64,000 bases of DNA from a virus. The translations under genes and the position numbers were made by a program. This document shows positions 4,647-56,701 of the stretch, piece after piece (the stretch's first letter is position 1; every line of letters begins with the position of its first letter). The notes under the pieces were generated by a model, which ran no database searches, had not been told where the DNA came from, and worked only from the letters and a program-made list of their open reading frames with translations. The stretch lies in the IMG/VR virus record IMGVR_UViG_3300044641_004197, positions 8,265 to 72,264 of that record. One strand, given 5' to 3'.

Positions 4647-5597
4647 TCATTTTAATTCTTTCAACAATCTAGCAATACAAGCCATGAAAGTAATTTCTTT
4701 ATTTACCACCAAACTACTCTGATGCAAATACTCCGCAATTGTCAAAATTGCCAATGTCTGTTTACCAGCCGCATATTCATCAACACGTTCAAATAACAAC
4801 TGATAAAGTTCATCGAATTGACGAAGACCTTCATCCGCAACCAATTGACGAATATCATTAAATGCAGTTGAAGGTTTAGTTCTCATTAATTCCATTAACT
4901 TAACCTTAATATCCTTACCAACCGAATCCATTTGATTGATCTTGATCTCCCCATTCAAAACACTCTGTTGGGAATAATTCAAAATCTTTCTGATATCTGG
5001 ATAATAAGCATTTACAATATATGCCAAATCGCCTGGAACATACTTAATCTGTTCTTTAGACAGAATATTACTTATATGGATTGCCACCTCTTTCTTACTA
5101 AGAGGTTCAATCTTATAAGTCTGACAACGAGACACCAACGCGGAAATAATCTTCTCTACATAATTACAAGTAAGGATAAACCGTGTAGTCAAACTATAGG
5201 TTTCCATCATATTACGAAGAGCCGCTTGAGCTTCTTGACTCAAGAAATCTGCCTCATCAAGAATGATAACCTTAAGTTTCTTAAATCCAGCACTACTAGC
5301 AAAACCCTTGATCTTATTACGAACGTTATCTACACTATTTTCGTCAGACGCATTTACATACAAAATATCACATTGAATGTTCTTGGTGATCGCTTTTGCC
5401 AGTGTAGTCTTTCCAGTTCCAGCAGTTCCATAAAATAACAAGTGTGGAACGTCTCCTTTATCGATAAAGGACTTAATAGTATCTTTTAATTGTTGATTTC
5501 CAATATAATTCTCTAAAGTAGTTGGACGATACTTCTCAACCCAAAGATAATGTGTATTTTCTGACGGTTTAACTTCTTCAAATTCAATAAAACTCAT
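4647..5597 (-). CDS. gp44: Clamp loader AAA+ subunit (RFC small subunit / T4 gp44-like)
   Basis: WVEKYRP, Walker A GTAGTGKT, NASD, ILDEAD and SRC motifs. Confidence 0.95.
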   Translation of the reverse strand: MSFIEFEEVKPSENTHYLWVEKYRPTTLENYIGNQQLKDTIKSFIDKGDVPHLLFYGTAGTGKTTLAKAITKNIQCDILYVNASDENSVDNVRNKIKGFASSAGFKKLKVIILDEADFLSQEAQAALRNMMETYSLTTRFILTCNYVEKIISALVSRCQTYKIEPLSKKEVAIHISNILSKEQIKYVPGDLAYIVNAYYPDIRKILNYSQQSVLNGEIKINQMDSVGKDIKVKLMELMRTKPSTAFNDIRQLVADEGLRQFDELYQLLFERVDEYAAGKQTLAILTIAEYLHQSSLVVNKEITFMACIARLLKELK

Positions 5598-5690: not shown

Positions 5691-6428
5691 TCAGTCAACG
5701 TTCTTAGTTTCAACGATATAATAAACCGATGTAAAGTCTCCACAAACAAACTCAGCCGTAGCTAGTCCTGCATCGCTAACTTTAAGGACAGCGGTTTCAC
5801 AATCCTTATTAGCCATCAAGATTTCCTTGAAGTGGTTTGCGTTAAAATGAATAGTCTTAGACACGGTATCCTTACCTTCATTGGTATCAACCGACAACTT
5901 AACTCTGTTGGTATTAATGCTTGAATATCCCAAGACAAACTCCAACTTACCCTTCTTGTTCATCAAGAGTGTGAAAGTATCAACATCTGGAAGAGCATTC
6001 TTCGCCTGAATAAACCTACCAACAAACTCAGAAGTCAACTTGATCTCCACATTAAACGGAGGAACCTTCTTAAGAGGTGGTGCTGCCGGAATAACTGAAA
6101 GGTCAGCGGTAACATACTGAATATCAGTTTTGTCATCACTGAAGGTAATACTAGTCATCTTATCATTGACAATATCATAATTACCCTTGATTTCGTCATC
6201 CAATACATTCAACAACTTCAATAGTTTGGAAGTATCATTAATACCGATTTCAGAGTTATCCAACTCATCAAAATTGTTCTTTACAACTGACAATAATACA
6301 TTCTTGTCGTCAGTCAAAGCATTGACTTTAAGTGTCTTGGATGCGCTATCCACGATAATTCTAACCGATTCGATAGTTCCACCCAAATAATATTTGTTAA
6401 TGAACGTTTTTAGTGTTTCTTTTGTCAT
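5691..6428 (-). CDS. gp45: DNA sliding clamp (T4 gp45/PCNA-like)
   Basis: 245 aa acidic beta-rich protein between the clamp loader and PolB; EIGINDTSKLLKLL resembles gp45. Confidence 0.8.
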   Translation of the reverse strand: MTKETLKTFINKYYLGGTIESVRIIVDSASKTLKVNALTDDKNVLLSVVKNNFDELDNSEIGINDTSKLLKLLNVLDDEIKGNYDIVNDKMTSITFSDDKTDIQYVTADLSVIPAAPPLKKVPPFNVEIKLTSEFVGRFIQAKNALPDVDTFTLLMNKKGKLEFVLGYSSINTNRVKLSVDTNEGKDTVSKTIHFNANHFKEILMANKDCETAVLKVSDAGLATAEFVCGDFTSVYYIVETKNVD

Positions 6429-6898: not shown

Positions 6899-9442
6899 TT
6901 AAAATCCGAAAAACTCACTAGCTTTAGCTTCATCTTCATTAGGATACGACCAGTGTAATACTTCATAGAAATCAATTAGTTTACTCTTGAGTTCTTGTTC
7001 ATACATCGTATCTCTATCAATATACTTCTCAATGAAGTTCATTATTTGATCTGGATCGGTTCCATCCGCTTTCATAGCAAGACATTCGATACCATATTCA
7101 TTTTGTTTTAGATATACCCACTTAATTTTCTGACCGTGGAAGATCGGTGGAATGATCTTGGTAAGACCAAACTTCTCAAGCAAGTCATTATAATGTAAAG
7201 CCGCTTTAACTTGTGCAGGAGTTCCACTGATAATCTGAAAAGGCAATCTCTTCTTTGGATTGTAATCCTTTCGTTTATCTTGACTCTGGAACTTAACACT
7301 GGTGTTCTTAGCAATATCAATAACACTATATGTCTTCATATCCTCCTTAAACTGAAGAATATTCTTATTAATAGTCTCTTGTTCCACTTTCTTTAGAAGA
7401 TCAATCAAGAAACCTTTCATAAAAGTTCTGAACTTTGCTGGGAATGATGTTCTTACAACGTCAATACCTTTAACTTCAAGTTCATCACACACTACACCAC
7501 CCTTGTTGATGATGAACTGGGCATATCTCTTCTTAGCCAACCAAAAGGATGTCTTAGCAATCACTTCTTGTTTCGCATCAAATCTATGAGTCTTGATATT
7601 AAATAATCTCAATGCCATTATATCAAACATCTTGTTTACATATGTCTGAGCTTCGCCAGTAACCTTTAGAATAGCCTCAGTCATTTGAGTTTCATCATTC
7701 AAATCAATATCAGGCATAGTCTTTTGGATAATAGGCAATGCACTAGCAAAGCAACTATCAGTATCTACATAGATAACATAGTCTTTGTCGTTTGCATCTT
7801 CACCCAACGTATTTTTATAGTATTGGTTAATAGCCTTATTAGCAGTTTGAATGATACTAACACCACTCAAAGTAACTGCTTCCGCATTATCCTTATCATA
7901 AAAACGGAATACAGGCAAACCCAAACAGCCATAAATACTGTTAAGCAAAATCTTTTGAATCTTTTGTCGTTGATCATAAAACTCATATAATTCCCAGTTC
8001 TTTTCTTCAGCATACTTACTGGCCATCTTACGCATTTCTTTACGTTCATTGAACCACTTAATTAGAATATTTGGTATAGTTCCACACTCTCCGTTTTCCG
8101 GAGGTTGTTTATACATAGCACCATTACTTGCAATACTGAAATTATTATCAACCAGTAACTTTTTAAAATCATCACTATTATAACTTTGACCGGCAAGATA
8201 AACTGTAGGAAGATTTCCCCTCACAAATTCTTCAGCAGACCAATTTTCTGCTTTACCTACCTTAGTCTCTGGACTGATGTTAAGACTGATGATGATATTC
8301 GGATACATTGATGTAAGGTCCAAATCAAACACCCAATCATAACGGCCAGGAACAGGATCTTTAACAAATGCTCCTTCAAACCCTTCTTCATTTTCTTCAA
8401 GTCTCTGTTCGTATTCTTCACGTCCTTCTAAAGGTTTATTTGGAGCAACTTTCTTCTTTCTACGAAGATACATAAGAATAGCACCCTCAAGGTATCTTGA
8501 TGAAGTTCCAAACTGTTCATAAGAAACGTGACCGGTATGACAAATACCTCTAGCAAGATCGATAAATTGAAGTTTCTTGTCAAGAGCTACAACGATTTTA
8601 ACGTCATTCAAGTTATATTCGATATATTTGTTGATGTCTTCCTTATACAAATCATTCAAACTACCCTTATAACTGATCTTATCAATATTAACAACCTTCT
8701 TACCAATCGCACCTAGAGTATAACTAGGTTCATTCTTACCACTGAACTTCTTATATAGAATCAGATAATCCAAACAAGATACACCTGCAATAGTCATCTT
8801 TTCGGAAAACTTATTGAAATATGCAATACCAATCGGACTAATTCTCTTTGCGTTGGTTTCTCCAACAACACGTTTGGTTCTATTGTAGAGATAGGTCATA
8901 TCGAACCCATCAATGTTCCACCCAGTAACAATTGTAGGTCTGATTTCTTCCCACTTACTATAAAAATGTAACAACAATGATTCTTCATTGTCAAAACTTT
9001 TGATTTCAACATCTTCAGTTATACTATCTTGAAGTTTACATTCTTTATCTAGAATGAATGCAGTATACTTCTTTGTAGTAGAATCGTGAACAGCAATAGC
9101 TGTAATTTCTTTATCTCCTTGTTCAATAACAGGAAATCCACCCTCCGAACTCACTTCGATATCGATAGTAGCAACAGTATGACCTTTTGAAGGATTATCA
9201 CTATCTTCATACGCATCAATCAAAATACGAGTCTCCAGTGGAACATCACTCTCATACAATGACGGATCTCTCGGATTGAAATTGTAAACCTTCTCTAACT
9301 TATCTCCATAAATGCTCGTATATGTTCCACTTGCACTCTTTCTATAGGCATAATTTCTAAATGGAAACTTAAGGTATCCTTTTTCATCATCCCACAAATG
9401 GATTTGGTTGTCTTTTCTATCAATAAAGATGTTCTGATACAT
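6899..9442 (-). CDS. gp43: Family B DNA polymerase (T4 gp43-like)
   Basis: Exonuclease motifs DIEV, GWNIDGFD and YNLND; polymerase motifs DLTSMYP, KILLNSIYG, YVDTDS and KKRY. Confidence 0.97.
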   Translation of the reverse strand: MYQNIFIDRKDNQIHLWDDEKGYLKFPFRNYAYRKSASGTYTSIYGDKLEKVYNFNPRDPSLYESDVPLETRILIDAYEDSDNPSKGHTVATIDIEVSSEGGFPVIEQGDKEITAIAVHDSTTKKYTAFILDKECKLQDSITEDVEIKSFDNEESLLLHFYSKWEEIRPTIVTGWNIDGFDMTYLYNRTKRVVGETNAKRISPIGIAYFNKFSEKMTIAGVSCLDYLILYKKFSGKNEPSYTLGAIGKKVVNIDKISYKGSLNDLYKEDINKYIEYNLNDVKIVVALDKKLQFIDLARGICHTGHVSYEQFGTSSRYLEGAILMYLRRKKKVAPNKPLEGREEYEQRLEENEEGFEGAFVKDPVPGRYDWVFDLDLTSMYPNIIISLNISPETKVGKAENWSAEEFVRGNLPTVYLAGQSYNSDDFKKLLVDNNFSIASNGAMYKQPPENGECGTIPNILIKWFNERKEMRKMASKYAEEKNWELYEFYDQRQKIQKILLNSIYGCLGLPVFRFYDKDNAEAVTLSGVSIIQTANKAINQYYKNTLGEDANDKDYVIYVDTDSCFASALPIIQKTMPDIDLNDETQMTEAILKVTGEAQTYVNKMFDIMALRLFNIKTHRFDAKQEVIAKTSFWLAKKRYAQFIINKGGVVCDELEVKGIDVVRTSFPAKFRTFMKGFLIDLLKKVEQETINKNILQFKEDMKTYSVIDIAKNTSVKFQSQDKRKDYNPKKRLPFQIISGTPAQVKAALHYNDLLEKFGLTKIIPPIFHGQKIKWVYLKQNEYGIECLAMKADGTDPDQIMNFIEKYIDRDTMYEQELKSKLIDFYEVLHWSYPNEDEAKASEFFGF

Positions 9443-45215: not shown

Positions 45216-46601
45216 TTACTCTGAATCCTCTTCGCTCATATGAGCATTCCATTTACCAGACATCATCTTCTTGACAAGATTTTCGCCTTGGTTCATTTCA
45301 TTGATGATTCCCATACCTTCCCTACTGTTTTCAGCAAAGATTTGAATATCACCACAACCCGCGTTCATTCGACTTGGGAATGTAATACCGTCTGGTCCAA
45401 ATCGATTCTTAATAATATGGAATCGTGCGGTGTTACTAACTTTATCGTTAACTTTACGACTGAGTGACATAACAAAATCAGCCGTCATGATTTTACGATA
45501 ACTGTCTGAAATATTATTTGCTTGAATAATATCTTCATCCATAGCAGCACGATTGCTTTGACTTGCAGTCCAAACTGGAACCTGAAGTTCACCGGCAATA
45601 CCACGAAGTTCTTCATAGATACCACCCGCCTCACTATAACTGTTACTATTACGTTCACTTTGGGATGGACGTAGAATATCAGCATAGTCAACGATAATCA
45701 TATCTACTTTTGTCCCCAGAGTTTGGATACGTTCTGCATGAAGCTTCAAACTGTGAGCGGACACAGTTTTGATGGGGAAATACTTAATGATAAGTTTGCC
45801 GGGAACTTCAGAAATTTTCTTCTTTACAACATCAACGTTATTACGAATGTTCTGGAAATCAATACCAGTGAAACACGCATCGTAACGTAGTCCAACGTAG
45901 TTTTCATTCAACTCAAGAGTATAATGTAACACATTCTTACCCTGCTTCATTGCCTCGGCACCAATCTTGGCAAGAACCCAACTCTTACCACTACCAGCAC
46001 AAGCAGTAATAACACCCATTTCACCGCCAGCCAATCCACCGTCCATAACAGTGTCAACTTCTGTCCAATTGGTCTTGACGGTCTTACGAGCCATCATACT
46101 CATACGTTTTTCCACATCGACTTCGTATTCATGACCGATATTTCTTTCCATACCAGCCTTCATAGCAACGTCAACAACATGCTTGATCTTGTCATATTGA
46201 CCATTCTTCAGATGATCAACACTCTCCATGATCGCATTCTTCAACTTTTGATTCTTACAAAATTCAAGGAATTGTTCCTTAATAAATTTCAAATCACTGT
46301 CAGTGATCTTTTGATAAACCAATCTCAATTGGTCAACAACAGTCTTCTTCAACAATTCATTGTCAATACTATCAACCTTGACTTTGAATACCGCCAATGT
46401 AGGCAGTTCTTTATATTGTAGGAAATAACTAACGGTTTCCTTTACAATAAACTGATGTGCATCAGTCTCAAACGATTGCGGTTCCAAAATATCGCTAATG
46501 CGTTCAATAAATGATTTATCACTCACAAGTGCAGAGATGCACTTGGTTTGAAACTCAGTTCCAAACTTCTTTAGATTATCTATAATGTATGTTTCGCTCA
46601 T
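45216..46601 (-). CDS. gp41: Replicative DnaB-like helicase (T4 gp41-like)
   Basis: AGSGKS, YTLEL, IVDYAD, WTASQSNR and KNRFG. Confidence 0.93.
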   Translation of the reverse strand: MSETYIIDNLKKFGTEFQTKCISALVSDKSFIERISDILEPQSFETDAHQFIVKETVSYFLQYKELPTLAVFKVKVDSIDNELLKKTVVDQLRLVYQKITDSDLKFIKEQFLEFCKNQKLKNAIMESVDHLKNGQYDKIKHVVDVAMKAGMERNIGHEYEVDVEKRMSMMARKTVKTNWTEVDTVMDGGLAGGEMGVITACAGSGKSWVLAKIGAEAMKQGKNVLHYTLELNENYVGLRYDACFTGIDFQNIRNNVDVVKKKISEVPGKLIIKYFPIKTVSAHSLKLHAERIQTLGTKVDMIIVDYADILRPSQSERNSNSYSEAGGIYEELRGIAGELQVPVWTASQSNRAAMDEDIIQANNISDSYRKIMTADFVMSLSRKVNDKVSNTARFHIIKNRFGPDGITFPSRMNAGCGDIQIFAENSREGMGIINEMNQGENLVKKMMSGKWNAHMSEEDSE

Positions 46602-46664
46602 AATTTAATAACGTATCCTTGTGAGTATAATACTATACCCACTTCTCTTTTTTTAAAAGATTTT

Positions 46665-47732
46665 TTAAGCCACAAATGAATTCACTTTCCCAAACACCTC
46701 TTGTAGCCAGATTATGCTGTTGGGGAAATTGTTTTGCATATTGTCTTCTAACAACAATTTGCTAAACTTATATCTGTCAAGTTTAATCAGTGGTTTCTCA
46801 AGAATTTCATTGATTCTGAGTTGACTAAATGACTGTATCTGCGTTTCATGTAATTGCATTAATTGCCAATTACGTTCTATAATATTCTTATTATCCAAGA
46901 TGGTATTATACAATTTATACTTTCCCTTGTGGGTATCACTATAATTGTATATTTCTTGTAATGAATATCGTTTTTCGTCAGTAAATATAGGAAAACATTT
47001 GATGATGGTCTTCAATCCCGCACCATTTATACCATCAATGTTATCACTATCGTCACCTTCCATTATACGATAATTTATAAAGTTACTACAAGTTACACCA
47101 TACTCTTGTAGAATTTCAGCACATCCATACAACTTCTTCTTAGTTGGACTCCAGATTTTAACTCTGTCATTTGCCAACTGCAAAAAGTCTTTGTCTGCAC
47201 TCATAATAGTTACATTACTATTTTTAAAATAGTCTGTAGCTAAATATGCAATTGTGTCATCCGCTTCAATATGATCAATTGCCATAGTTGTAACAGGCAA
47301 TGTATCCAAATATCTTACAGTCTTAATCAACTGTATTTTAAGATTCTTTTCTTCTGAATCTGGATTGCTCAGATCCTCATATGTTCTATTGAGACGGATC
47401 TTTGTTTTTCTACCAGCCTTATAATCAGGATAAATTTTTCTGCGTTTCATTGAACCACCATTACCATCAGACACAATTACGATTCTGGTGGGATTCAACA
47501 ATTTAACCGCATATCCAATACTTTTTAAACATCCAGCAATACCACCCGTATGATTTCCATTAGAATTCAATGCGGGACTTGCCATGAATGCTCTAATAAA
47601 AGTATTCATAAAGTCGATTATAAGGACATCAGAGTTGAGGGTCCGATTAAGACCCTCACTCTGCGGGGTTGTTTTTATTTGATCAAACAAACTAAACAAC
47701 CTCTTTTTTTCACTGTCAGTTAGATTGCTCAT
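46665..47732 (-). CDS. rnh: 5'-3' exonuclease / RNase H (FEN family)
   Basis: IIDFMN, YKAGR, EADDTIA, SADKDFLQL and GDDSDNIDGI. Confidence 0.93.
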   Translation of the reverse strand: MSNLTDSEKKRLFSLFDQIKTTPQSEGLNRTLNSDVLIIDFMNTFIRAFMASPALNSNGNHTGGIAGCLKSIGYAVKLLNPTRIVIVSDGNGGSMKRRKIYPDYKAGRKTKIRLNRTYEDLSNPDSEEKNLKIQLIKTVRYLDTLPVTTMAIDHIEADDTIAYLATDYFKNSNVTIMSADKDFLQLANDRVKIWSPTKKKLYGCAEILQEYGVTCSNFINYRIMEGDDSDNIDGINGAGLKTIIKCFPIFTDEKRYSLQEIYNYSDTHKGKYKLYNTILDNKNIIERNWQLMQLHETQIQSFSQLRINEILEKPLIKLDRYKFSKLLLEDNMQNNFPNSIIWLQEVFGKVNSFVA

Positions 47733-48877
47733 TCTTCACTACCAGCAGATTCTTCATCAGTATCCACAACAGCGTCATCAACAATCTGACTATTAGGATC
47801 TTTATATTTCATAATAACAGACTCACAAATCTTCAAATAAACTTCTTCTTTCAAAGATTGATCAGTCTGCATTGCGGATACAAAGTCCTTGGATTGGAAC
47901 TTCCATTCACTGCCATCATCCTTCTTATAGGTATAATAAGCACCACCTTGTTTGATAATGTTATTCTCCTTCAATACTTTGATCCAACTGCTATAGTCGG
48001 CAATACCACTATCGAAGTAAATATCAAAATTAGCTTGACGTTGTGGTGGACCCATTCTGTTCTTAACAACAACTGCCTTACACTCATTACCGATGATTTC
48101 TTCACCCTTTTTGAGTTTACCAGTGTTGTTCAAACGAACACGGACACTACAATGATAAGCCAAAGCCTTACCACCACTCACCACATACTTGTCACCAAAT
48201 GCCATAGCATTTAGATTCTGACGTAATTGATTTGTGAATACAGTAAGAACCTTCTGACGGCCAATCATGTTGGTGATCTTTCTCATGGCCTTACTAATGA
48301 TAATACTCTTACCAGTAGCAAATCCATCTTTACCGTGATCACTCTCTAACTCTGCCTTTGTAGAAGCAGCAGCAACAGAGTCAATAATAAGTGTCAAAAT
48401 ACGATCTTTACTGCTCTTACGAACAATTCCAATCATCTGTTCCATCTTTTCAAAAATATCCTCTACAGTATCCGTTTGGACATATAGAAGATTCTTTAGA
48501 TCTACGCCCAAACTCTTCCAGAATTCTGGAGCAGCGGCGTTTTCAGTGTCCAATACTACTGCGACACCACCTTTACGTTGTGTCTCTGCACAAATATGCG
48601 CAGACACCAAACTCTTTCCGGTTCCTTCCAATCCGTTAAGTTCAACCATCTTTCCAACTGGCAATCCGCCATGTGGACGATTACTAATGGCCAAATCTAA
48701 CATTGATGATCCGGTGCTAATCCAATCACTAATATCGGCGGGGTTTTCTTGTTCATCCAAGAAATAAGCAATTTTACCACCGTCTTTATTTGCTTTATTT
48801 AATTCATTTGCCAACAACTCAACCAATTCGTCTCGTTGTGGTGATTCATTCTGCGTAACATGTGATTTCTTTTTCAT
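47729..48877 (-). CDS. recA: RecA/UvsX recombinase
   Basis: STGS..LD, GLEGTGKS, IIDSVAA, NQLR, GGKAL and VVKNR. Confidence 0.95.
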   Translation of the reverse strand: MKKKSHVTQNESPQRDELVELLANELNKANKDGGKIAYFLDEQENPADISDWISTGSSMLDLAISNRPHGGLPVGKMVELNGLEGTGKSLVSAHICAETQRKGGVAVVLDTENAAAPEFWKSLGVDLKNLLYVQTDTVEDIFEKMEQMIGIVRKSSKDRILTLIIDSVAAASTKAELESDHGKDGFATGKSIIISKAMRKITNMIGRQKVLTVFTNQLRQNLNAMAFGDKYVVSGGKALAYHCSVRVRLNNTGKLKKGEEIIGNECKAVVVKNRMGPPQRQANFDIYFDSGIADYSSWIKVLKENNIIKQGGAYYTYKKDDGSEWKFQSKDFVSAMQTDQSLKEEVYLKICESVIMKYKDPNSQIVDDAVVDTDEESAGSEE

Positions 48878-48891
48878 AAAACTTATAAGTT

Positions 48892-48923
48892 AAAGGGGTG
48901 ATAGTAATATATACCATCACCCC
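48892..48923 (-). terminator. Stem-loop after the SSB gene
   Basis: GGGGTGAT.GTA...TAC.ATCACCCC inverted repeat. Confidence 0.55.
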
Positions 48924-48940
48924 AATCTAAACCAGTTATT

Positions 48941-49762
48941 TTAACTGTTGAACAAATTATCAAAAGCCTTGGTCAAGTCTTCTGTATTTGTCTTGCTAGC
49001 AGAGGCGGACGGTGACGAAGCCTTTGCCTTTGGTGCCGGGGTTGGTGCGGACGGAGCTGCCTCCATCTCAGGATCATCATCCACAACTGCATTCACAGTT
49101 GGTTCGCTTCCATTTTCAGGATTTAACCAAGCATCCATGACACCCTTCAACTGTTCGTAACTCAACTCAGGGAACAAATCCAAAATATTGGTTTGCTTAC
49201 CGAGCAATTCCTTCTGGGAAGGATCAATCGCAACTGAAGTGTTTGGCTTTGGACGAATGGTAGTTTCTGGGAAACTCTTACCACACTCTTCTGCGGTTCT
49301 AAACTCTACAACAATATCACGTCCATTAACTGGATCGGTAATATCACCATAGTCAGCGTCACTGATAATAGAAAGAAGTTCTTGATAAACGTTCTTTCCG
49401 AATCCCCAGAAACGAACACCCTGATCCTCTTCTCCACGGACCAAAACAGGAACATAGGTTCGGAGCTTCGGTTCCATCTTACGGCCCAACTGCCAATCTT
49501 CCTTGTTGCCGGTCTTCTTCATACGATTTGACCATTCAACAATAGGATCAGGACGGTTAAAACTATCAGGAGATAGATAAGTCTTGTTGTTGATATTGTA
49601 GTGGAACTTGAGTTCGATAAACGGATTCTCAGGATTATACTTGTAGGGAACGATACGAACTACTTGCTTTCCGGGGTTTGGTTTCCAAATCAAATTTGTC
49701 TTTTGATTTGCGTTTGAGAGAGAATTCAAACGATTCTTAATTTTAGATAGATCTAATGCCAT
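48941..49762 (-). CDS. gp32: Single-stranded DNA-binding protein (T4 gp32-like)
   Basis: WKP..GKQVVRIVP, FWGFGK, DITDPVNGRD; acidic/Pro-rich tail ending AFDNLF. Confidence 0.85.
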   Translation of the reverse strand: MALDLSKIKNRLNSLSNANQKTNLIWKPNPGKQVVRIVPYKYNPENPFIELKFHYNINNKTYLSPDSFNRPDPIVEWSNRMKKTGNKEDWQLGRKMEPKLRTYVPVLVRGEEDQGVRFWGFGKNVYQELLSIISDADYGDITDPVNGRDIVVEFRTAEECGKSFPETTIRPKPNTSVAIDPSQKELLGKQTNILDLFPELSYEQLKGVMDAWLNPENGSEPTVNAVVDDDPEMEAAPSAPTPAPKAKASSPSASASKTNTEDLTKAFDNLFNS

Positions 49763-49871
49763 AATTGTTTATTATATTAATTGTTAAGTGTTAATTAATT
49801 ATTCGATAAATCCACACGGACTTAATTCATAACTAATACACGTATAACTATAAACAAGAATGACAAATCTT

Positions 49872-50264
49872 TCAACTTATTATATCAAAAAGTTTTATGG
49901 GAATTATTCTAACAGAAACCTCGCCGGTTAAAATAAGGCAATTGTTGTAAAGTTCCCAATTTAATTGGAATTTGTTATCAAATACACCATTATTTTCCTC
50001 AGTTATTAATTTATTCATGGCATTCAACGTATACAAAGTGTTTGTTTGTTTTTTACGGTGAAGACCAATTGTATTTGGAAACTTTGGAAATTGGTTGGAT
50101 TCATTTATATCTATATTGTAAGTGATATAAACGTTTCGTGGAGCTTTTGTTCCACTAAACAAAAAAAGTTTATTTCCATTTACGGAATAAAAACTCCTAA
50201 TTTTTTCAATTAGTTCTTTGTATTCATCGATATTTGAAAATGTGCAAAGTAGTTGTTTTTTCAT
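49872..50264 (-). CDS. Hypothetical phage protein
   Basis: 130 aa; QLLCTF...HRKKQTNTLYTLNAMN. Confidence 0.75.
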   Translation of the reverse strand: MKKQLLCTFSNIDEYKELIEKIRSFYSVNGNKLFLFSGTKAPRNVYITYNIDINESNQFPKFPNTIGLHRKKQTNTLYTLNAMNKLITEENNGVFDNKFQLNWELYNNCLILTGEVSVRIIPIKLFDIIS

Positions 50265-50890
50265 TTTTTAGGACGGATCATTATTTTGCCTATGTCTTCG
50301 ACATATCTGGCAATTCCTACTTCAGAACCTTCTTCCGTATACCAAGTAGATCCTTTATTATAGAAACCGTTTGCTTTGGCTTCTTCTAAAGAGTATTCGG
50401 TTGTTAAAATAGTTTGAACGGTCTGAGCATCAGCTTGTTTTTCTTGCGGAGTTCTCAAGTCAGGTTCTTCTTTATCCTTTTCCGCAGGAGTTTCTGGTTG
50501 TTGCGGTTCTGGTGCAGATGGTTGACTTGGTTCTTGTGGTTGTGTAGCAGGTGGTTCAGAAGATTGTGGTTCTGGTGCAAAAATATTTGCGCCTGCGGCT
50601 TTCTTGGGATTTTCTTCAAAGTGAGTTCCACGAGAAATTGCTCTTTGTTTATATTCCGGTGTGGGGAATGTTACGAGAAGACCCGCAGCATTATAAGCTT
50701 GTCGTTCAGGATATTTACCCTCAACCATCGCATTTCTTATTTCGGCAGATGATGACTCATCCAAATTCAAAGTGGTTTCCAAATATTCTTGTAGAATATT
50801 CAAATGGTCATTATTTTCCATCGAAAAAATGCCGTCTTTTATGCGTGAGTCAAGACAAATGTTCTCTATTATATAAGATAGTATGTTCAT
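50261..50890 (-). CDS. Hypothetical protein with Pro/Glu/Gln linker
   Basis: 209 aa, coupled to its neighbours. Confidence 0.7.
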   Translation of the reverse strand: MNILSYIIENICLDSRIKDGIFSMENNDHLNILQEYLETTLNLDESSSAEIRNAMVEGKYPERQAYNAAGLLVTFPTPEYKQRAISRGTHFEENPKKAAGANIFAPEPQSSEPPATQPQEPSQPSAPEPQQPETPAEKDKEEPDLRTPQEKQADAQTVQTILTTEYSLEEAKANGFYNKGSTWYTEEGSEVGIARYVEDIGKIMIRPKK

Positions 50891-50891
50891 A

Positions 50892-52043
50892 TTAACCTAA
50901 TGTTACTTGCGGTCTTACAAATTGGTTTATTGCATTAAATTTAAAGTTCGGAGGATTAATCAAGAATTCATTCTTTTCATTGATTATCATTATTTCAACA
51001 CCTGCGTTTCTATACTTTTCGTTCAATTGAACAACCATTTGTGTTTGAAATATTTCTGATTTAGGATACTTCTTCAAGAATACACTTAACAAAGAATTGA
51101 CATCTTCAGCAAATGACGTTAATTCTTCAGTGTCTTGAGTATCTTCTGTTTTTTCAATAGTGGTTTGGTGTTTTCCCGATTGAAGCGCTTTCTTCAAATC
51201 ATCAAACGAAATCTTAAAGAATACATCTTTATCTATATCATTTGCTTTGAATACGAAACTTTTACCGGCAGTTTTTTCTGATGACAAACTCTTTTGTGAT
51301 TTTTCGTAAACTACATAGTTACGAAGTTGTTCGATGAAATCATAAAAAGCATTTAATTTTTTAAGAGTAACAGATGCTTCTGATCCGTCCATTAATGCAT
51401 CATATGCATTTGACATCTCTTGAATCTTTTCACCGTCTTTATATTCTTTGGATGTAAATAACTTTTTAAGACCGAATGTTACGTATCTAAAAGAGTTGAT
51501 AGTGTCTAAGTCAATATTAGTTCCAAATCGAATTGTATCTTTTGCCTTCTTAATCTTTTTGATTTCGTATTTCTTTTCACCGATTTGAATATCACCTTTA
51601 TCGCCGATAATCTTTTTGGAATCAGGCAATAATAAATAAAAAGCAAACTCACCCTGACCTATCTGATTCTTTTCATACACAATCAGAGACGGATTTTCTC
51701 TCAAGAATTGAAACGTAGCATCTATCGTTTGATTTGTTTTTCTAAACTCTCTGACATAATTAACCAAAAGTTCCAAATCTTGAGCAGATGGTTGAGTCTT
51801 AAAGAAAGACATGTATCTTTTCTTTACATAGTTTACGATTTCTTCTGTAGTATCAGGAACAACTGACCCCTCCGCTTCAAAAAGTTCATTTAATCTTTTT
51901 CTATCAAACAAAGAAATGTATTTATTTTTAATCAAAAAAGATTCGAAGTGAAATAAATCTTCGGAATTTTTTATATTAAACTTCAGTCCTCCATCTTTTC
52001 TTGATATAAAGTATTCTTGTAGGATATCATCAATTGTTAACAT
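50892..52043 (-). CDS. Hypothetical protein with PD-(D/E)XK-like motif
   Basis: IGQGEFAF...KGDIQIGEKKYEIK. Confidence 0.55.
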   Translation of the reverse strand: MLTIDDILQEYFISRKDGGLKFNIKNSEDLFHFESFLIKNKYISLFDRKRLNELFEAEGSVVPDTTEEIVNYVKKRYMSFFKTQPSAQDLELLVNYVREFRKTNQTIDATFQFLRENPSLIVYEKNQIGQGEFAFYLLLPDSKKIIGDKGDIQIGEKKYEIKKIKKAKDTIRFGTNIDLDTINSFRYVTFGLKKLFTSKEYKDGEKIQEMSNAYDALMDGSEASVTLKKLNAFYDFIEQLRNYVVYEKSQKSLSSEKTAGKSFVFKANDIDKDVFFKISFDDLKKALQSGKHQTTIEKTEDTQDTEELTSFAEDVNSLLSVFLKKYPKSEIFQTQMVVQLNEKYRNAGVEIMIINEKNEFLINPPNFKFNAINQFVRPQVTLG

Positions 52044-52047
52044 ATAG

Positions 52048-52063
52048 TATAAATATATAAATA
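52048..52063 (-). promoter_or_regulatory. Tandem TATTTATA putative late promoter motif
   Basis: Two copies, the nearer 4 nt before the ATG; the same motif occurs at 40473, 61525, 62949 and 63561. Confidence 0.55.
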
Positions 52064-52084
52064 TTTATTGAAATTTTGAATTTC

Positions 52085-53434
52085 TTATATATCAACAAGT
52101 TTCATGTCATTATAATTAACACCCATATAACTTTTGGTAGGAAACTTTCCATTTTCCATCAAAGTCTTTATTTGACCAAAACATTCTTTTTCTTCCAAAC
52201 AAACGTCAAACAAAATACTATCATACGTATACAATATAGCTTTTGTTTGTTTATTGTTTAGATATTGATTTACACTAGCTAATGATTGTATACCAAACTC
52301 AGTTTCACTTGCTTGTAGAATATAGTTAAATAACTTATTTGGGTTGGGTTCGTATATATGATTTGTGGTGATCTGTCTCTTAAAGATCGGAGTTTCTACA
52401 TATTGGTATCTATTAAAGAAATCCCATCTATGATCAATATATTCATTCATCTTTTTATAATAAGGAATCTCCAACAATTCGTCTGGTATGTTACCATACA
52501 TACACTGAAAAGTAACATTCTTAGCTGTTTTAATCTCCTCAGATGTTAATTGTTCTTTTCCGTAATAATACCGTCCAAGATATTCGTAAGCATTTGACGG
52601 TAGATTATAATTAATTAACTTTGCTACCAAATGTGGATGATACGCACTATAATCAATCATAAATAGAATACCGTCCTTTCCGAATCTACTTATGAAACTA
52701 CTACGACACCCATTCTCCTTGTTTAAGGCGCTATAGTTTACATTTCCAAACCGATTGCTAGGTCTACCCGTGGATGTATACATATTATACTGTGTATACA
52801 CAAATTCATTTATTACCTTAACGTTCTTATCTCCAAAGTGAGTATTGAAAATGTCTTCGTTAACTTTTAATCCATTCTTTTCTAGAATCTGTAGATTATC
52901 CGTTATAATTCCGTTTAAATCATTAAAACTACTGTCTAGCCTTACATTTCTAACTCGTTTCAATGATTCCACACACATTTGTTCAAATTTCTCCAAATGT
53001 TTTGTAATAGGAATAACTTTGTTTATATCACTATAGTTAGAAAACTTCTGTTTATAGAAATTATGAGATGCGGTATCGTATTCACTATAATCATCTACTT
53101 TACCATCAGAGATAAAGAATATGATATTGATGTCAAACAGATTTTGAATAGGAAGAATATGACTAAATTTCTTTTTATCAAACACCCACTTTTTACCACT
53201 CAGTCGGTTTAAATCATACTTTAACTGTTCAACATCAAGTTTAAATGATGAATCGTTGTGATTTATGGAAATGACGTTAGTTTTTTGCTTGTGAATATTA
53301 TACGAGAAAAATAAAGAAGGAATTGATACGCATGGATGAAAACGATCATCTACTTGAATTACATCGCAGATTAAATCGTCGTCTCTATTTTCTTTTAGAA
53401 AAAGTTTGTATTCGTCACTCGACCGTATGACCAT
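52085..53434 (-). CDS. Reduced family A DNA polymerase-like protein
   Basis: LEKNGLKV, TSTGRPS, motif A IDYSAYH, motif B AKNVTFQCMYG, YVET, NYILQ and motif C YTYDS. Confidence 0.85.
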   Translation of the reverse strand: MVIRSSDEYKLFLKENRDDDLICDVIQVDDRFHPCVSIPSLFFSYNIHKQKTNVISINHNDSSFKLDVEQLKYDLNRLSGKKWVFDKKKFSHILPIQNLFDINIIFFISDGKVDDYSEYDTASHNFYKQKFSNYSDINKVIPITKHLEKFEQMCVESLKRVRNVRLDSSFNDLNGIITDNLQILEKNGLKVNEDIFNTHFGDKNVKVINEFVYTQYNMYTSTGRPSNRFGNVNYSALNKENGCRSSFISRFGKDGILFMIDYSAYHPHLVAKLINYNLPSNAYEYLGRYYYGKEQLTSEEIKTAKNVTFQCMYGNIPDELLEIPYYKKMNEYIDHRWDFFNRYQYVETPIFKRQITTNHIYEPNPNKLFNYILQASETEFGIQSLASVNQYLNNKQTKAILYTYDSILFDVCLEEKECFGQIKTLMENGKFPTKSYMGVNYNDMKLVDI

Positions 53435-53440
53435 TATAAT

Positions 53441-53469
53441 AATCTACAACAGAAACTTTGTTTTGTCAA
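53441..53469 (-). promoter_or_regulatory. Sigma70-like promoter, probably giving a leaderless mRNA
   Basis: TTGACA-17-TAGATT; 6 nt before the ATG. Confidence 0.55.
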
Positions 53470-53470
53470 C

Positions 53471-53851
53471 TTAACTTGGTTTCCAGTATTCCAGAGGATT
53501 TTTTAGAGTAGATTCGATTTCAGGAATATATTTTTTATGAATATTGATTTGATTCCGATTATATTCATATACACCTTCTTCAATTTTTATTTTATCTTTA
53601 AAAACATCATTTCTCTTTCCTGTCAATTTCCAGTTTATTGCAATTTTTATATATATATTTGTTGATATATCGGTATAATTATCACTTGCAACTTCATAAA
53701 CAATTTTATCGTTTGCTCTTTTTACAAAATATCTAGTGAAAAAACCACCGTCATAATCGCTTTCCGTTGGTATTACTTTATCATAAACAGGATAACTTGT
53801 AATAATCCCGTCATAACTAATATCTCTAGTATTATCTGGATATTCAATCAT
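53471..53851 (-). CDS. Hypothetical protein in the tail/baseplate operon
   Basis: 126 aa; PTESDY..GFFTRYFVK. Confidence 0.7.
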   Translation of the reverse strand: MIEYPDNTRDISYDGIITSYPVYDKVIPTESDYDGGFFTRYFVKRANDKIVYEVASDNYTDISTNIYIKIAINWKLTGKRNDVFKDKIKIEEGVYEYNRNQINIHKKYIPEIESTLKNPLEYWKPS

Positions 53852-53856
53852 TTTAT

Positions 53857-56400
53857 TTAGGGAGTGTTTAATTGAAATTGTGAATTCATTGTTGATTGCG
53901 TAGTTTGTTGACCTCTTTGAAGATTATAAGACGGTCTCAAAGACGCTTTTATTCTGGTTTCCCATCCATTTTCATCAAGTGTATGATTTACATCTCTAAC
54001 TTGAAAAACAACTACATCGTCTGTAAATGGAGGTGGAAGATTTTGTATTTTAAAGTATTCAAATACACGTATGCCAGCAATCCCCATCAATGTAATTTCA
54101 ATTTCAACATTTCTAATAGGTGCGCAGTATACGCCTGGATTTCCAGATTTATCGTTGTCATTTAACATATACACTAAGGCTTCTTTTTCAGGTATATATA
54201 AATCCACAATATTGTATTTTGTTCTGTCGATGGTGGTTTGCATTGTAGTTCCTCTACCACCAGCTCTTTCAGTTTTTGTAGGAAATACCTGCACTCTCAT
54301 TAATACATAATCTGGATTTCCCGGGTCAAATTTAACATATTTTTGCATTATGTTTAAAAAAGTCAACGTTGTCTCTGAATTACGTGGTTGATTTTTATCC
54401 TTATTTATTGGACCCTTTATTTTATCATAATATTGATTTTGATTTGAAAAATCAATTAAATTGTTCATTGAAAGAGATTTTTGTCCAAACGATCTATACA
54501 ATATTTGATTTGCCATTGCATTCGTAAGTGATGTTGTAAAACTCATCTTTTTTATTATAGATGTATTACTTCCGTATGAAAAAACAAAAACGTTATCCGC
54601 ATTTTGTTTGTTGGTAGGCAATTTCTGATCAACTATTTGTAATCTATTGTATGGCGTAGAAAGATTTGGATCTGTCGTTCTTATTTCCGCAACCTCAAGA
54701 TTCCAATAATCACATACAGACTCATTCATTTCTTTTAAAATTAAATCGTATACTTCTTTCATATCAATTGCATCATCATTGATTACAATCGAATCATTTA
54801 TAAAACTTACATTTATGTATACATTTTTTATTAAACCTTCACTATCAAATGAAGTTTTTCCACGTTTATTACTTGTAGATTTTCTACCATAAGCATTTAA
54901 AACACCATCTAAATTATTTCTATATACATCAGAATTATAAGTGCCTAATAAAGCCAGTGTATTATTAGCATTTGGAGGCAACTCATTAATATTATTAAGA
55001 GATATAAAATTTCTCCCCGTCGATTCCGATTTCATATACACAGAATCATTTAACCATTGTCCAGTTTTTCGTCTTTGTGTAGGATCTTCAGGAATCTCTT
55101 CGTCAAAAAACCGGGTCACGTCATCTGCATTTTGGTTATAATTTAAAGAACCTTTACCATTAAATTTTGGAGCATCTGGGTTTGGTATCAATATAGTGCG
55201 ATTGGTAGAAATTAAATTTTTATGATATCCTGCCTTTGCATTCATTACATCCATCTCAAAGAAATTTTTGAGAAAAGAATTTTCTTTATTTTGATTTTTC
55301 AATGAATTCATTATATCCACAAATAATTCAAGTGTAATATAATAATCTTTCATTGCGGCTGACTGATCGTTGCCGTTTTGAGATGTCGAATCAGAAGTCT
55401 TTTTTGATGGAAACTTGTATATATAAGAAGACAAATTTTCTAAATTTTTGCCATATTTGATACTTAAACCACCGAGCAATGTTTTGATATTATCCACCGG
55501 TTCATTTACATTTCCAGATCTTCCTTGTAACTGTTGTTGCGAAGGTAAAAATGGTTCGGCGTCGTTGGGCGTAAAATTCTTTTTCGTCAATGACACAAAT
55601 ATTTGTTGACATTGTGTTTTAAATGGCATTGCAGGACTTTCCCTTCCTGATTGTTCTGTTACTGTATTTACAGTCTTTTCGCCACGAACATTGAATCCAC
55701 TATACAACATCTGTCTAGATTTTATTTCAGTAAAACCTTTTATGATATTATCTTCAAAACTATATTCAAAGTTAGTTACATCACCTACCATAAATTCATA
55801 GTTACCCTTTGAAAGAGGAACTTTGTTTTCATATTGATAATAGTGATTTTCTACTATAGTTTTTAATTCGTTTATATCTGTATAGTTAATTAAAGATTGA
55901 GGATTAAAATTGTCCCACCCCCATTCTACAAATACAGTAATAAGAGGAGTTAACAAATAAGGCGTTATCGCTTTCAACTGATCAATAGAATGACACGTCC
56001 AGTTTAATTTGGCAGTTATAAAAAAGTTTTTCTGAACATCAGCGGTAAACGATGTAATGCCAGGCTCAGGCACATTTATTCTATATTGTGGATTTTTTAT
56101 TTGTTTTGGCGAATCATCATTTGAATATCCATATATTTGAGAATTAGATGATATTCCATATTTATCTTCAAATGTTGATGCCGATTTTAAAATTAACCCC
56201 CAACTGTTTGTATCTTGTGCGGAGTTTACACCATTTGAAAATGCACGAATCCAATGTCTTCTTGGGCCAGATAAATAATTTATACTAGTAGTTGATGGGA
56301 GTTGGCGAATACCATTAGATAAGTAATTAACTCGATTATTTAATTCTTGGACTACCCAAGGCTGAAATGGACCGGATTCCCATGGACGTTCAGATGACAT
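53857..56400 (-). CDS. Putative baseplate hub-like structural protein
   Basis: Lies after the LysM-like gene; C-terminal EITLMGIAGI...FQVRDVNHTLDENGWETRI resembles the gp27/gpD hub fold. Confidence 0.6.
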   Translation of the reverse strand: MSSERPWESGPFQPWVVQELNNRVNYLSNGIRQLPSTTSINYLSGPRRHWIRAFSNGVNSAQDTNSWGLILKSASTFEDKYGISSNSQIYGYSNDDSPKQIKNPQYRINVPEPGITSFTADVQKNFFITAKLNWTCHSIDQLKAITPYLLTPLITVFVEWGWDNFNPQSLINYTDINELKTIVENHYYQYENKVPLSKGNYEFMVGDVTNFEYSFEDNIIKGFTEIKSRQMLYSGFNVRGEKTVNTVTEQSGRESPAMPFKTQCQQIFVSLTKKNFTPNDAEPFLPSQQQLQGRSGNVNEPVDNIKTLLGGLSIKYGKNLENLSSYIYKFPSKKTSDSTSQNGNDQSAAMKDYYITLELFVDIMNSLKNQNKENSFLKNFFEMDVMNAKAGYHKNLISTNRTILIPNPDAPKFNGKGSLNYNQNADDVTRFFDEEIPEDPTQRRKTGQWLNDSVYMKSESTGRNFISLNNINELPPNANNTLALLGTYNSDVYRNNLDGVLNAYGRKSTSNKRGKTSFDSEGLIKNVYINVSFINDSIVINDDAIDMKEVYDLILKEMNESVCDYWNLEVAEIRTTDPNLSTPYNRLQIVDQKLPTNKQNADNVFVFSYGSNTSIIKKMSFTTSLTNAMANQILYRSFGQKSLSMNNLIDFSNQNQYYDKIKGPINKDKNQPRNSETTLTFLNIMQKYVKFDPGNPDYVLMRVQVFPTKTERAGGRGTTMQTTIDRTKYNIVDLYIPEKEALVYMLNDNDKSGNPGVYCAPIRNVEIEITLMGIAGIRVFEYFKIQNLPPPFTDDVVVFQVRDVNHTLDENGWETRIKASLRPSYNLQRGQQTTQSTMNSQFQLNTP

Positions 56401-56402
56401 AA

Positions 56403-56699
56403 TTATGAATTTGCTAATTTAAAACTTTGTAATATTGATGTTATATTTGTAGGAATTCTAAGTTGTTTTGTTACATCCAAACTCAATTTTCCTTTGCCTA
56501 GATTATTTGCAACCGCAATAATCCACCATAAGCTAGTATCTTTGTAATATTGGTATGCCAATGCATCCAAGTAATCATTATCTGATACAGTGATATATAT
56601 ATCAGAATCAGATTCTGGAATAACAGGATATATCAATGTTCTATAAACATTTTTTCCGTCCCATCTTTTACCTACAGTTGTATAATCATATCTGTTCAT
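56403..56699 (-). CDS. LysM-like baseplate protein (gp53/gpX-like)
   Basis: DYLDALAYQYYKDTSLWWIIAVAN...QLRIP. Confidence 0.8.
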   Translation of the reverse strand: MNRYDYTTVGKRWDGKNVYRTLIYPVIPESDSDIYITVSDNDYLDALAYQYYKDTSLWWIIAVANNLGKGKLSLDVTKQLRIPTNITSILQSFKLANS

Positions 56700-56701
56700 A
56701 A

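Follow-up and report, generated by a model that had tools for sequence, protein, structure and literature searches.

A thumb-truncated family A DNA polymerase of the divPolA1 type, with histidine at the steric-gate position, encoded alongside a T4-type family B polymerase in a phage genome fragment

The window analysed here is a stretch of 64,000 nucleotides, positions 8,265 to 72,264 of IMG/VR virus record IMGVR_UViG_3300044641_004197. It carries a gene for a divergent family A DNA polymerase of 449 amino acids, flanked by a conserved small gene upstream and by a series of replication and recombination genes downstream. The features of this locus, with positions counted from the first letter of the window, are:

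53471..53851, minus strand: conserved upstream neighbour, 126 aa; homolog directly upstream in 49 of 66 loci
53441..53469, minus strand: promoter-like element TTGACA-17 nt-TAGATT, in the 36-nt gap before the ATG and ending 6 nt before it
52085..53434, minus strand: divPolA1 gene, 449-aa open reading frame; Klenow-like polymerase with truncated thumb and a predicted inactive exonuclease-like domain
50892..52043, minus strand: variable insert just downstream, 383 aa; homolog in only 1 of 80 related loci
50261..50890, minus strand: downstream protein of 209 aa with a Pro/Glu/Gln-rich middle; homolog in 29 of 80 loci
49872..50264, minus strand: linked downstream protein, 130 aa; 55 of 55 loci with at least 3.5 kb of downstream sequence
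[quoted passage not shown]
47729..48877, minus strand: UvsX/RecA-like recombinase (phrog_97, E 1.6e-72); 36 of 36 loci with at least 7 kb of downstream sequence
46665..47732, minus strand: 5'-3' exonuclease of FEN / RNase H type (phrog_107, E 4e-32); 35 of 36 loci
45216..46601, minus strand: DnaB/gp41-like replicative helicase (phrog_19, E 8.2e-76); 30 of 36 loci, a count limited by the 8-kb flank

The 66 loci scored for the 126-aa neighbour are those with at least 500 nt of upstream sequence. Homologs of the 209-aa protein, where present, are always downstream and on the same strand; neither this protein nor the 126-aa and 383-aa neighbours matched any family above cut-off. The order 130-aa protein-SSB-UvsX-FEN is the same in Flavobacterium phage immuto, where the FEN homolog is annotated as a 5'-3' exonuclease, and in Microcystis phage Mel-JY01. 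Elsewhere, the window encodes a UvdE UV endonuclease (E 2e-41), whose pathway would require a FEN and a gap-filling polymerase, and a Mom-like DNA modification protein (E 1.1e-41) together with many sugar-modifying enzymes. A megablast search of window positions 40000-60000 against phage records gave no match.

The 130-aa protein is linked to the polymerase at every locus scored. No Pfam or PHROG family matched it, a profile search against PDB sequences returned only chance rows (E at least 0.24), and the protein atlas gave no usable match. Its AlphaFold2 model (pLDDT 93) is a predicted alpha/beta structure with no OB barrel; the best Foldseek match has E 0.13, and the best match in a wide VIA search (Z 4.7) is to generic ferredoxin-like halves. 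UvsY and gp59 were considered as candidates; both are helical proteins, which does not fit the predicted alpha/beta fold. Complex prediction of the polymerase with the 130-aa protein scored 0.07 against a mark of 0.32, which speaks neither for nor against binding.

The sequence motifs of the polymerase that had been listed in the first-pass annotation are all present in the 449-aa protein, as read directly and as re-translated from the coordinates:

52889..53434, minus strand, residues 1-182: exonuclease-like domain without a conserved DEDD site (conservation and structural match)
residues 187-192: NGLKVN (re-translated)
52802..52858, minus strand, residues 193-211: thumb stub, one 8-residue helix and a loop (DSSP of the model, Klenow alignment)
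residues 220-226: TSTGRPS (re-translated)
52637..52654, minus strand, residues 261-266: motif A DYSAYH, with catalytic Asp261 and His266 at the steric-gate position
52493..52534, minus strand, residues 301-314: motif B IKTAKNVTFQCMYG, containing IKTAK; Lys305, Phe309 and Tyr313 kept
52205..52231, minus strand: motif C YTYDSILFD (YTYDS is residues 402-406), with catalytic Asp405, Ser406 in place of Glu and Tyr404 in place of His

The Pfam family DNA_pol_A (PF00476) matches only residues 326-428, with 30.6 bits, under the gathering cut-off of 34.3, and is found as a precomputed match in most of the relatives listed. A phmmer search of the protein against PDB sequences produced chance matches only, so that a profile, built from 85 relatives, was needed to align it with Klenow. 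The AlphaFold2 model (pLDDT 97, pTM 0.93) has Klenow (1kfd) as its best Foldseek match, with E 4e-20, and superposes in VIA on the Bst Pol I large fragment (3hpo) with Z 28.3, 413 aligned residues and an rmsd of 3.2 Å. The structural match covers residues 1-445, with the N-terminal domain matched to the exonuclease domain of Pol I. [quoted passage not shown] The first-pass annotation had proposed superposition on Klenow and T7 Pol as a check; that on the Klenow and Bst fragments returns a PolA fold in which the thumb is not intact.

Only 19 residues (EDIFNTHFGDKNVKVINEF) lie between NGLKVN and VYTQY, in good agreement with the 18 or so estimated from the sequence by eye, and in the model a single 8-residue helix (193-200) stands at the place of the thumb helices. 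The profile matches Klenow in two pieces, profile positions 168-202 corresponding to chain positions 200-234 and profile positions 190-434 to 310-585. The distance from the Glu of IERNG to the Arg of TGR is 126 residues in Klenow, as counted in the printed profile alignment, against 22-41 residues (median 38) from E185 to R224 in 250 full-length relatives, the set to which all conservation counts below refer; compared with Klenow, some 88 residues of the thumb are missing. The deletion is shared by the homologs. Thumb-deletion mutants of Klenow link the loss of the thumb to low processivity, and it is reasonable to expect the same of divPolA1, since its thumb is lost as in those mutants. The same mutants are cited in a paper on the CcPol polymerase (PMC10061031).

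The exonuclease-like domain is retained as a fold but appears to be inactivated. Within residues 1-182, acidic residues reach a frequency of 80% or more among the 250 sequences at just two positions, 61 (D/E) and 101 (D), so that a four-carboxylate DEDD site cannot be conserved, in accord with the earlier view that the 3'-5' exonuclease motifs are degenerate. Conserved in this domain instead are H33, H59, K87, K88, N138, P142, H146 and N174.

The palm and fingers tell a different story. In the profile alignment DYSAYH is aligned to Klenow DYSQIE, with His266 at the place of the steric-gate Glu, Lys305 at that of the motif B Lys, and Asp405-Ser406 at that of the motif C Asp-Glu pair. Both catalytic aspartates, D261 and D405, are kept in 250/250 relatives. 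The steric-gate position is His in 248, with one F and one Y. In motif B, K305 is invariant (250/250), and F309 and Y313 are found in 244 and 240 sequences, respectively; position 301, four before Lys305, is mostly hydrophobic (Y 86, I 79, L 46, V 22), with K in 3 relatives and the Arg of RxxxK in 2. Motif C has Y404 and D410 in 248/250 each, and position 406 is S in 219, A in 28 and G in 3, making Y-D-S/A/G the family pattern. Further conserved residues are R224 and Q374 (250/250 each), R244 (248/250) and N370 (238/250). The four canonical features of Pol I, i.e., the full thumb, the steric-gate Glu, RxxxK and HDE, all differ here and in nearly all 250 relatives, and the odd residues, judged by their conservation, are hallmarks of the family. 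In short, the 449-aa protein retains the palm and fingers chemistry and has lost about 88 thumb residues and the proofreading site. The steric-gate Glu, the motif B Arg and the motif C Glu are residues of importance in Klenow and, because they are replaced family-wide, substrate or rate may differ from those of ordinary Pol I.

Could such a protein be a catalytically dead scaffold, which binds only DNA or replisome partners? The loss of the motif C Glu and motif B Arg would suit this, as would the sub-threshold Pfam score, but across 250 diverse sequences there is little or no variation in the two metal-binding aspartates, in the Lys of motif B, or in the Arg, Gln and Asn that contact primer and template. 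This is typical of a working active site, and we consider a dead protein extremely improbable. The suggestion of template-independent synthesis is weakened in the same way by the retention of Arg224, Gln374 and Asn370, which we take to be the equivalents of the Klenow residues that read the minor groove of the primer-template.

Neither does the use of rNTPs, proposed earlier, follow from the replacement of Glu by His. A polymerase retuned for insertion of ribonucleotides, or of a modified nucleotide poorly handled by the replicase, would make sense of a nearly invariant His where Pol I has its barrier to the 2'-OH, of the family-wide alteration of residues on the triphosphate side, including the lost motif B Arg, and of the Mom-like protein and sugar-modifying enzymes in the window. 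On the other hand, His is bulky and could still block the 2'-OH; position 309, presumably the equivalent of Klenow F762 and Tyr in T7-type RNA polymerases, is Phe in nearly all relatives; and the structural matches listed are all to Pol I. The published divPolA1 carriers, moreover, have regular polymerases of three families (PMC11348598), which argues against one special nucleotide. Such retuning seems to us distinctly unlikely.

Polymerases of this kind are already in print. The divPolA1 family was named by Yutin et al. (2024, Virol J 21:200, PMC11348598; preprint 10.1101/2024.04.26.591309), whose text reports it in 14 phage genomes of 155-190 kb, names phage immuto, whose gene 1 is the type member, as a carrier, and describes the truncated thumb, the dead exonuclease, the preserved palm residues and the occurrence in phages that also have a regular polymerase, which may belong to family A, B or C. 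By sequence comparison, the window gene is a member of this family. A tblastn search aligned it to immuto gene 1 at E 3e-46, with 28% identity and 92% of the query covered, and immuto gene 1 matches the profile of the window family over its full length (405.6 bits, E 5.6e-125) and shares the hallmark residues; the regular PolA of immuto does not match this profile at E <= 10. The family is large in metagenomes, with 1009 clusters at 50% identity (E <= 0.001), 535 of them with E <= 1e-30. Compared with the published genomes, the window belongs to a fragment rated 24% complete, and for this reason the genome of this phage is probably larger than 155-190 kb. The words "steric", "histidine" and "ribonucleotide" are absent from the text of PMC11348598, the Figure 5 motif alignments and supplements of which may show the residues themselves. 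A search of the literature on thumbless polymerases found nothing relevant. Added here are the size of the metagenomic family, the near-invariant His, the promoter-like element, the linkage figures, and the gp61-like primases in relatives.

The window also encodes a probable replicase, in a separate cluster:

6899..9442, minus strand: T4-type family B DNA polymerase, likely the replicase (phrog_262, E 4.7e-174, residues 2-845 of 847; PF00136, 120.7 bits)
5691..6428, minus strand: sliding clamp, beside the polymerase (phrog_223, E 4.5e-11)
4647..5597, minus strand: clamp loader, beside the polymerase (phrog_168, E 1.6e-77)

The first-pass annotation credited the phage with the set gp43/44/45/62; the polymerase, clamp loader and clamp are confirmed by these matches, and the 138-aa frame at the position of gp62 (6479-6895) matched nothing. 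Among relatives, 4 of 5 large IMG/VR contigs encode PolB, one of the four being 159.6 kb long, carrying terminal repeats and rated 100% complete; immuto lacks PolB and has a PolA frame of 778 aa. With a full-length T4-type PolB, clamp and clamp loader alongside, relatives similarly equipped with a regular PolB or PolA, and the published description (PMC11348598) in agreement, it is highly improbable that the 449-aa protein serves as the main replicase, as the first-pass annotation had also concluded. The converse arrangement, with divPolA1 as the true replicative polymerase of the lineage, its thumb replaced by a partner and the swappable regular polymerases auxiliary, would fit its place at the head of the SSB-UvsX-FEN-DnaB unit. 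According to the text of PMC11348598, replication genes lie downstream of divPolA1, and the regular polymerases are found less consistently among replication genes. But divPolA1 has neither thumb nor proofreading, the PolB of the window has its own clamp and clamp loader, and a search for longer or fused family forms (787-2245 aa) found none, though this is weak evidence given the search tool; the probability of this arrangement is, in our opinion, very low.

No primase was found on the 72-kb fragment, estimated to be 24% complete, where the first-pass annotation had proposed to look for a DnaG or gp61 type. Among relatives, a gp61-like Toprim frame of 310-333 aa was found in immuto, LR756508, two IMG/VR contigs and, as a weak match, Mel-JY01. 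Priming was one of the functions suggested earlier; given these frames, a role of divPolA1 as sole primase is unlikely.

Among known systems, divPolA1 shares with the Klenow and Bst enzymes the two-domain fold, the catalytic Asp pair, the motif B Lys/Phe/Tyr, the TGR Arg and NxxxQ, and differs from them in the shortened thumb, the steric-gate His, the lost motif B Arg, the Y-D-S in place of H-D-E in motif C and the missing DEDD site. Unlike Pol I, it has no 5'-3' exonuclease domain; the FEN is encoded by a gene of its own, four genes downstream. The divPolA2 of barbaviruses is likewise a second, divergent PolA without a normal thumb that occurs alongside PolB, but according to the text of PMC11348598 its N-terminal globular domain is unrelated, its gene context varies and its structural matches are RNA-polymerase-like, whereas divPolA1 retains the exonuclease-like domain, has a constant gene context and matched Pol I large fragments in all entries listed.

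The CcPol-MP system of staphylococcal SCCmec is also similar, in that an A-family polymerase with shortened thumb and defective exonuclease region is accompanied by genes for an ssDNA-binding protein and a helicase (PMC7581432; PMC10061031). As described there, CcPol has primase activity and needs its small ssDNA-binding partner (PMC7581432), an OB-fold protein encoded between polymerase and helicase (PMC10061031). By analogy, divPolA1 might be a dNTP-using primase with such a partner, or a Pol-alpha-like enzyme that extends gp61-type RNA primers before hand-over to the replicase. Consistent with this, the SSB and the 130-aa protein accompany it in 55/55 loci and DnaB is linked to it as well, and its constancy next to regular polymerases of family A, B or C (PMC11348598) would suit a universal adaptor. 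However, the Toprim frames in relatives indicate a dedicated primase separate from the polymerase, unlike in CcPol-MP; the 130-aa neighbour has neither a predicted OB barrel nor a clear match; CcPol keeps the steric-gate Glu that divPolA1 replaces (PMC7581432); and its exonuclease domain is cut away, while that of divPolA1 is kept whole (PMC7581432; PMC10061031). We regard a primer-related function as unlikely.

The first-pass annotation gave the gene its own promoter. In the window alone this is no better than chance, with 14 promoter-like sites against 14.2 expected, but the upstream regions of relatives tell in its favour: TTGAC is found in 24 of 69 distinct upstream 60-mers (shuffle mean 3.5, maximum 8), mostly at -34 to -37, and the composite -35/-10 pattern in 48 of 69 (shuffle mean 3.4, maximum 8; coding control 4 of 69). 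A promoter-like element at a fixed distance, about -35, is thus supported. The gene would then be transcribed from its own sigma-70-type promoter into an almost leaderless mRNA, as the first gene of a conserved unit with the 130-aa protein, SSB, UvsX, FEN and DnaB.

The analysis shows the fold, the deletion, residue conservation, linkage, the promoter-like element, and coexistence with regular polymerases and primases; catalytic activity, dNTP use, low processivity and pathway we infer. Most likely, divPolA1 is an accessory, distributive, template-dependent DNA polymerase; in its full form, that of an exonuclease-deficient, poorly processive enzyme of short-patch synthesis beside the main replicase, we give this reading about an even chance. 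It may extend invading 3' ends in recombination-dependent replication. Or else it may fill gaps left by the neighbouring FEN after removal of primers or lesions, the two acting as a split Pol I. A role as Pol I substitute does not explain the retention of the gene in immuto, since the regular PolA of that phage could fill gaps, and the strict conservation of divPolA1 while the family of the regular polymerase varies hints at a role more central than repair. The accessory-polymerase reading leaves the preserved H33, H59, D/E61, D101 and H146 unexplained.

A bolder and rather unlikely version would make divPolA1 the fixed adaptor of a very large phage lineage, a thumb-less enzyme that would take over 3' ends, whether of nascent primers or of invading strands, or might even initiate DNA chains together with an SSB-type partner in the manner of CcPol-MP, with the His tuning it to RNA-ended primers or ribonucleotides. 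If true, this could explain how the lineage swaps its replicase between families A, B and C.

Whatever its exact function, divPolA1 is abundant, and the large aquatic phages of its lineage conserve it strictly. In the textbook work on Pol I, the residues changed in its hallmarks are tied to sugar selection, triphosphate binding and processivity, and the family is for this reason a natural experiment in what a PolA core is capable of without a thumb. With two cultured carriers, Flavobacterium phage immuto and Microcystis phage Mel-JY01, its function is directly testable.

The minus-strand ORF at 52085..53434 encodes a protein of 449 aa, in which all motifs quoted by the first-pass annotation, each re-translated from its coordinates, are found. 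Similarity to known sequence families is faint: against Pfam DNA_pol_A the protein reaches 30.6 bits where the cut-off is 34.3, and this over residues 326-428 only, and a PHROG search gave two 'DNA polymerase' families at about 1e-6. An AlphaFold2 model, based on an alignment of the query and 84 diverse relatives, has mean pLDDT 97.0 and pTM 0.93. Its top Foldseek match is the Klenow fragment of E. coli Pol I (1kfd, E 4.2e-20), and all 50 entries listed by VIA-align are DNA polymerase I large fragments (Bst, Taq, M. smegmatis); with the Bst fragment 3hpo, 413 residues spanning model residues 1-445 align at an rmsd of 3.2 A and Z 28.3.

This kind of protein is already published as divPolA1, and the 449-aa protein belongs to it. 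A tblastn search of phage records matched it to Flavobacterium phage immuto, whose gene 1 bears the annotation 'DNA polymerase family A' (E 3e-46, 28% identity over 92% of the query). Mel-JY01, a Microcystis phage, and an uncultured phage of 484 kb were matched as well; polymerases of Twort-like staphylococcal phages were matched by the C-terminal half alone. The text of Yutin et al. 2024 (PMC11348598), who named the immuto protein and its relatives, describes 14 genomes of 155-190 kb, each of which has a regular polymerase too, from family A, B or C; divPolA1 has a truncated thumb, retained palm residues and an inactivated exonuclease with its three Asp replaced, lies upstream of conserved replication genes, and is concluded to probably retain polymerase activity and participate in replication. 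The words 'steric', 'histidine' and 'ribonucleotide' are absent from that text, though its Fig. 5 motif panels and supplements may show these residues. In the literature searched, the name divPolA1 occurs only in this paper and its preprint, and the examined text of the 2023 PolA reclassification (PMC10201439) mentions neither Flavobacterium nor immuto. Immuto gene 1 matches the profile of our alignment over its full length (405.6 bits) and has the same hallmark residues as the query; the regular PolA of immuto, a frame of 778 aa, gives no match to this profile at E <= 10, and in the hallmark columns it carries, unlike divPolA1, E, R and H-D.

The family is large. With E <= 0.001 as threshold, a word-indexed search gave 3380 proteins, of which the 120 best are 262-462 aa long and 40-99% identical. 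Among 50%-identity representatives, searched exhaustively, 1009 pass this threshold, 792 pass 1e-10 and 535 pass 1e-30. Longer or fused forms were looked for and none was found, which is weak evidence. Conservation was counted in the query and 249 of 268 stored relatives, 19 outside 400-480 aa being left out as fragments; these 250 sequences are the best-scoring matches to the query and not an unbiased sample.

The claimed deletion of the thumb is real and family-wide, as three observations indicate. The profile matches Klenow (E 4.2e-11) in two pieces, skipping chain residues ~235-309; the interval from the Glu of IERNG to the Arg of TGR, 126 residues in Klenow by the profile alignment, is 22-41 residues (median 38) in the 250 sequences; and in the model the place of the thumb is taken by a loop and a single helix of eight residues (193-200). 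Residue equivalences to Klenow were taken from the HMMER alignment with the same profile, and the roles assigned to these residues follow the Pol I literature.

Conservation of active-site residues among 250 sequences (query numbering)
D261: 250/250
H266, steric-gate position: 248/250 (one F, one Y)
K305: 250/250
F309: 244/250
Y313: 240/250
R224: 250/250
N233: 250/250
R244: 248/250
N370: 238/250
Q374: 250/250
E377: 250/250
Y404: 248/250
D405: 250/250
D410: 248/250

Both catalytic Asp, whose conservation in homologs had been proposed as a test, are invariant, and the reported alterations extend throughout the family: besides H266, the residue four before K305 is Y in 86 sequences, I in 79, L in 46, V in 22 and the motif B Arg in only 2, and at position 406 Ser stands in 219 sequences, Ala in 28 and Gly in 3, Glu in none. 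Judged from this alignment, the unusual residues are hallmarks of divPolA1 and not noise. They are the ground on which altered nucleotide choice has to be considered as a rival explanation. Another rival is a dead scaffold; the catalytic and primer/template-contacting residues are kept, which points to a working, template-dependent polymerase. Loss of the thumb and of the exonuclease would give this polymerase low processivity and no proofreading. The exonuclease had been called degenerate, and indeed within residues 1-182 just two positions have an acidic residue in 80% or more of the 250 sequences, so that the DEDD site is not conserved.

The same domain (52889-53434, minus strand) keeps other residues, namely H33 (242 of 250), H59 (226), K87 (219), K88 (224), D101 (240), P142 (244) and H146 (197), which an accessory polymerase does not account for; together with D/E61, the His, Lys and Asp residues, kept in most sequences, could form a new metal or ligand site.

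That divPolA1 is the true replicase has to be weighed against the other polymerases of these phages. The window encodes a full-length T4-type PolB (E 4.7e-174), a clamp loader and a clamp; of the gp43/44/45/62 set claimed for it, only the gp62 place is without support, the ORF at that place, 138 aa long and flanked by the clamp and PolB genes, having no match. PolB is found in 4/5 large IMG/VR contigs with divPolA1 relatives, one of these being 159,586 bases long with terminal repeats and rated 100% complete; in immuto none was found. A separate observation concerns contig G002 (behind locus L037), where the PolB match at 69652-71978 lies in two frames (495 and 447 aa), the first match containing a TGA and a TAG, so the gene may be split or interrupted. 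A primer function like that of CcPol-MP or Pol alpha is a further rival, and here the primases bear on the matter: Toprim_2 frames of 310-333 aa, the size of T4 gp61, occur in immuto, which in addition has a weak match to the DnaG zinc ribbon, in LR756508, in 2/5 large contigs and, below cut-off, in Mel-JY01. The source record of the window, 72,264 bases of IMG/VR rated 24% complete, yielded no primase frame, an absence that a fragment cannot demonstrate. Coexistence with a regular replicase and a primase points to an accessory role for divPolA1.

Genes downstream of divPolA1 in the window
50892-52043, minus strand: ORF of 383 aa, no family
50261-50890, minus strand: ORF of 209 aa, no family
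49872-50264, minus strand: ORF of 130 aa, no family
48941-49762, minus strand: SSB, gp32-like
47729-48877, minus strand: UvsX recombinase
46665-47732, minus strand: FEN, 5'-3' exonuclease
45216-46601, minus strand: DnaB, gp41-like helicase
41743-45102, minus strand: RNR, ribonucleotide reductase

Downstream gene order is the same in the window, immuto and Mel-JY01. When 80 IMG/VR loci were searched with the window's proteins, the 130-aa protein and SSB were linked in 55/55 loci whose downstream sequence reaches 3.5 kb or more, and UvsX in 36/36, FEN in 35/36 and DnaB in 30/36 where it reaches 7 kb or more, always on the strand of divPolA1 and in constant order. The 383-aa ORF, between divPolA1 and the conserved genes, has a homolog in 1/80 loci and is therefore probably a lineage-specific insert (weak Pfam hint 'inactive STAND', E 0.12). 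The 130-aa protein has no family or fold match despite a confident model (pLDDT 93); N50, H69, R70, N75, Y78, N81, N84 and W103 are invariant in 41 sequences. Upstream, a 126-aa gene is present in 49/66 loci with at least 500 nt of sequence there. A baseplate hub is also encoded on this side, as are large conserved proteins, which places divPolA1 at the border of the structural and the replication/recombination blocks.

The gene had also been credited with its own promoter.

Promoter-like element
53469-53441, minus strand: TTGACA-17-TAGATT, ending 6 nt before the ATG

Within the window such sites are at chance (14 vs 14.2 in shuffles). TTGAC, the textbook promoter core, is enriched upstream in relatives: of 69 distinct 60-mers, 24 have it, mostly at -34 to -37, against a mean of 3.5 and a maximum of 8 in shuffles. 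These 60-mers come from 74 loci in which the ORF is complete and the upstream sequence long enough. A composite -35/-10 pattern, written after inspection of the sequences and thus somewhat fitted, is present in 48/69, against a mean of 3.4 and a maximum of 8 in shuffles and 4/69 in coding controls. The comparison among relatives is the more telling. The start codon is supported by Met in 190/250 rows at the Met1 column. As in the window (53435-53470), the element lies only a few nt before the ATG in many relatives (loci L014-L093), with no space for a Shine-Dalgarno site, so the mRNA would be leaderless or nearly so.

Several other genes of the window were observed in passing. A Mom-like DNA modification protein (40484-41266, minus strand; Pfam Mom, E 1.1e-41) suggests that a modified base may be present in the phage DNA. 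At 2036-4615 (minus strand) and in the long plus-strand block 11861-31052, several glycosyltransferases (phrog_2170) are encoded, as is an aminotransferase (phrog_3139); with a radical SAM protein at 603-1646 they look like a sugar-modification island. A 317-aa AAA+ ATPase adjoining a 705-aa protein without match (36281-39364, minus strand) best matches a CobS-like 'porphyrin biosynthesis' PHROG (E 1.6e-29), not a clamp loader.

Taken as a whole, the first-pass observation is confirmed and its interpretation, a non-processive nucleotidyltransferase distinct from the replicase, is supported in part. To the published divPolA1 the analysis adds the family-wide steric-gate His, a promoter-like element and figures for gene linkage. 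The constant place of divPolA1 as first gene of the SSB-UvsX-FEN-DnaB unit suggests that this accessory polymerase would act in recombination-dependent replication, in the maturation of fragments or in repair; a UvdE-type UV damage endonuclease in the window (33211-34122, minus strand; Pfam UvdE, E 2e-41) fits a nick-and-fill pathway.
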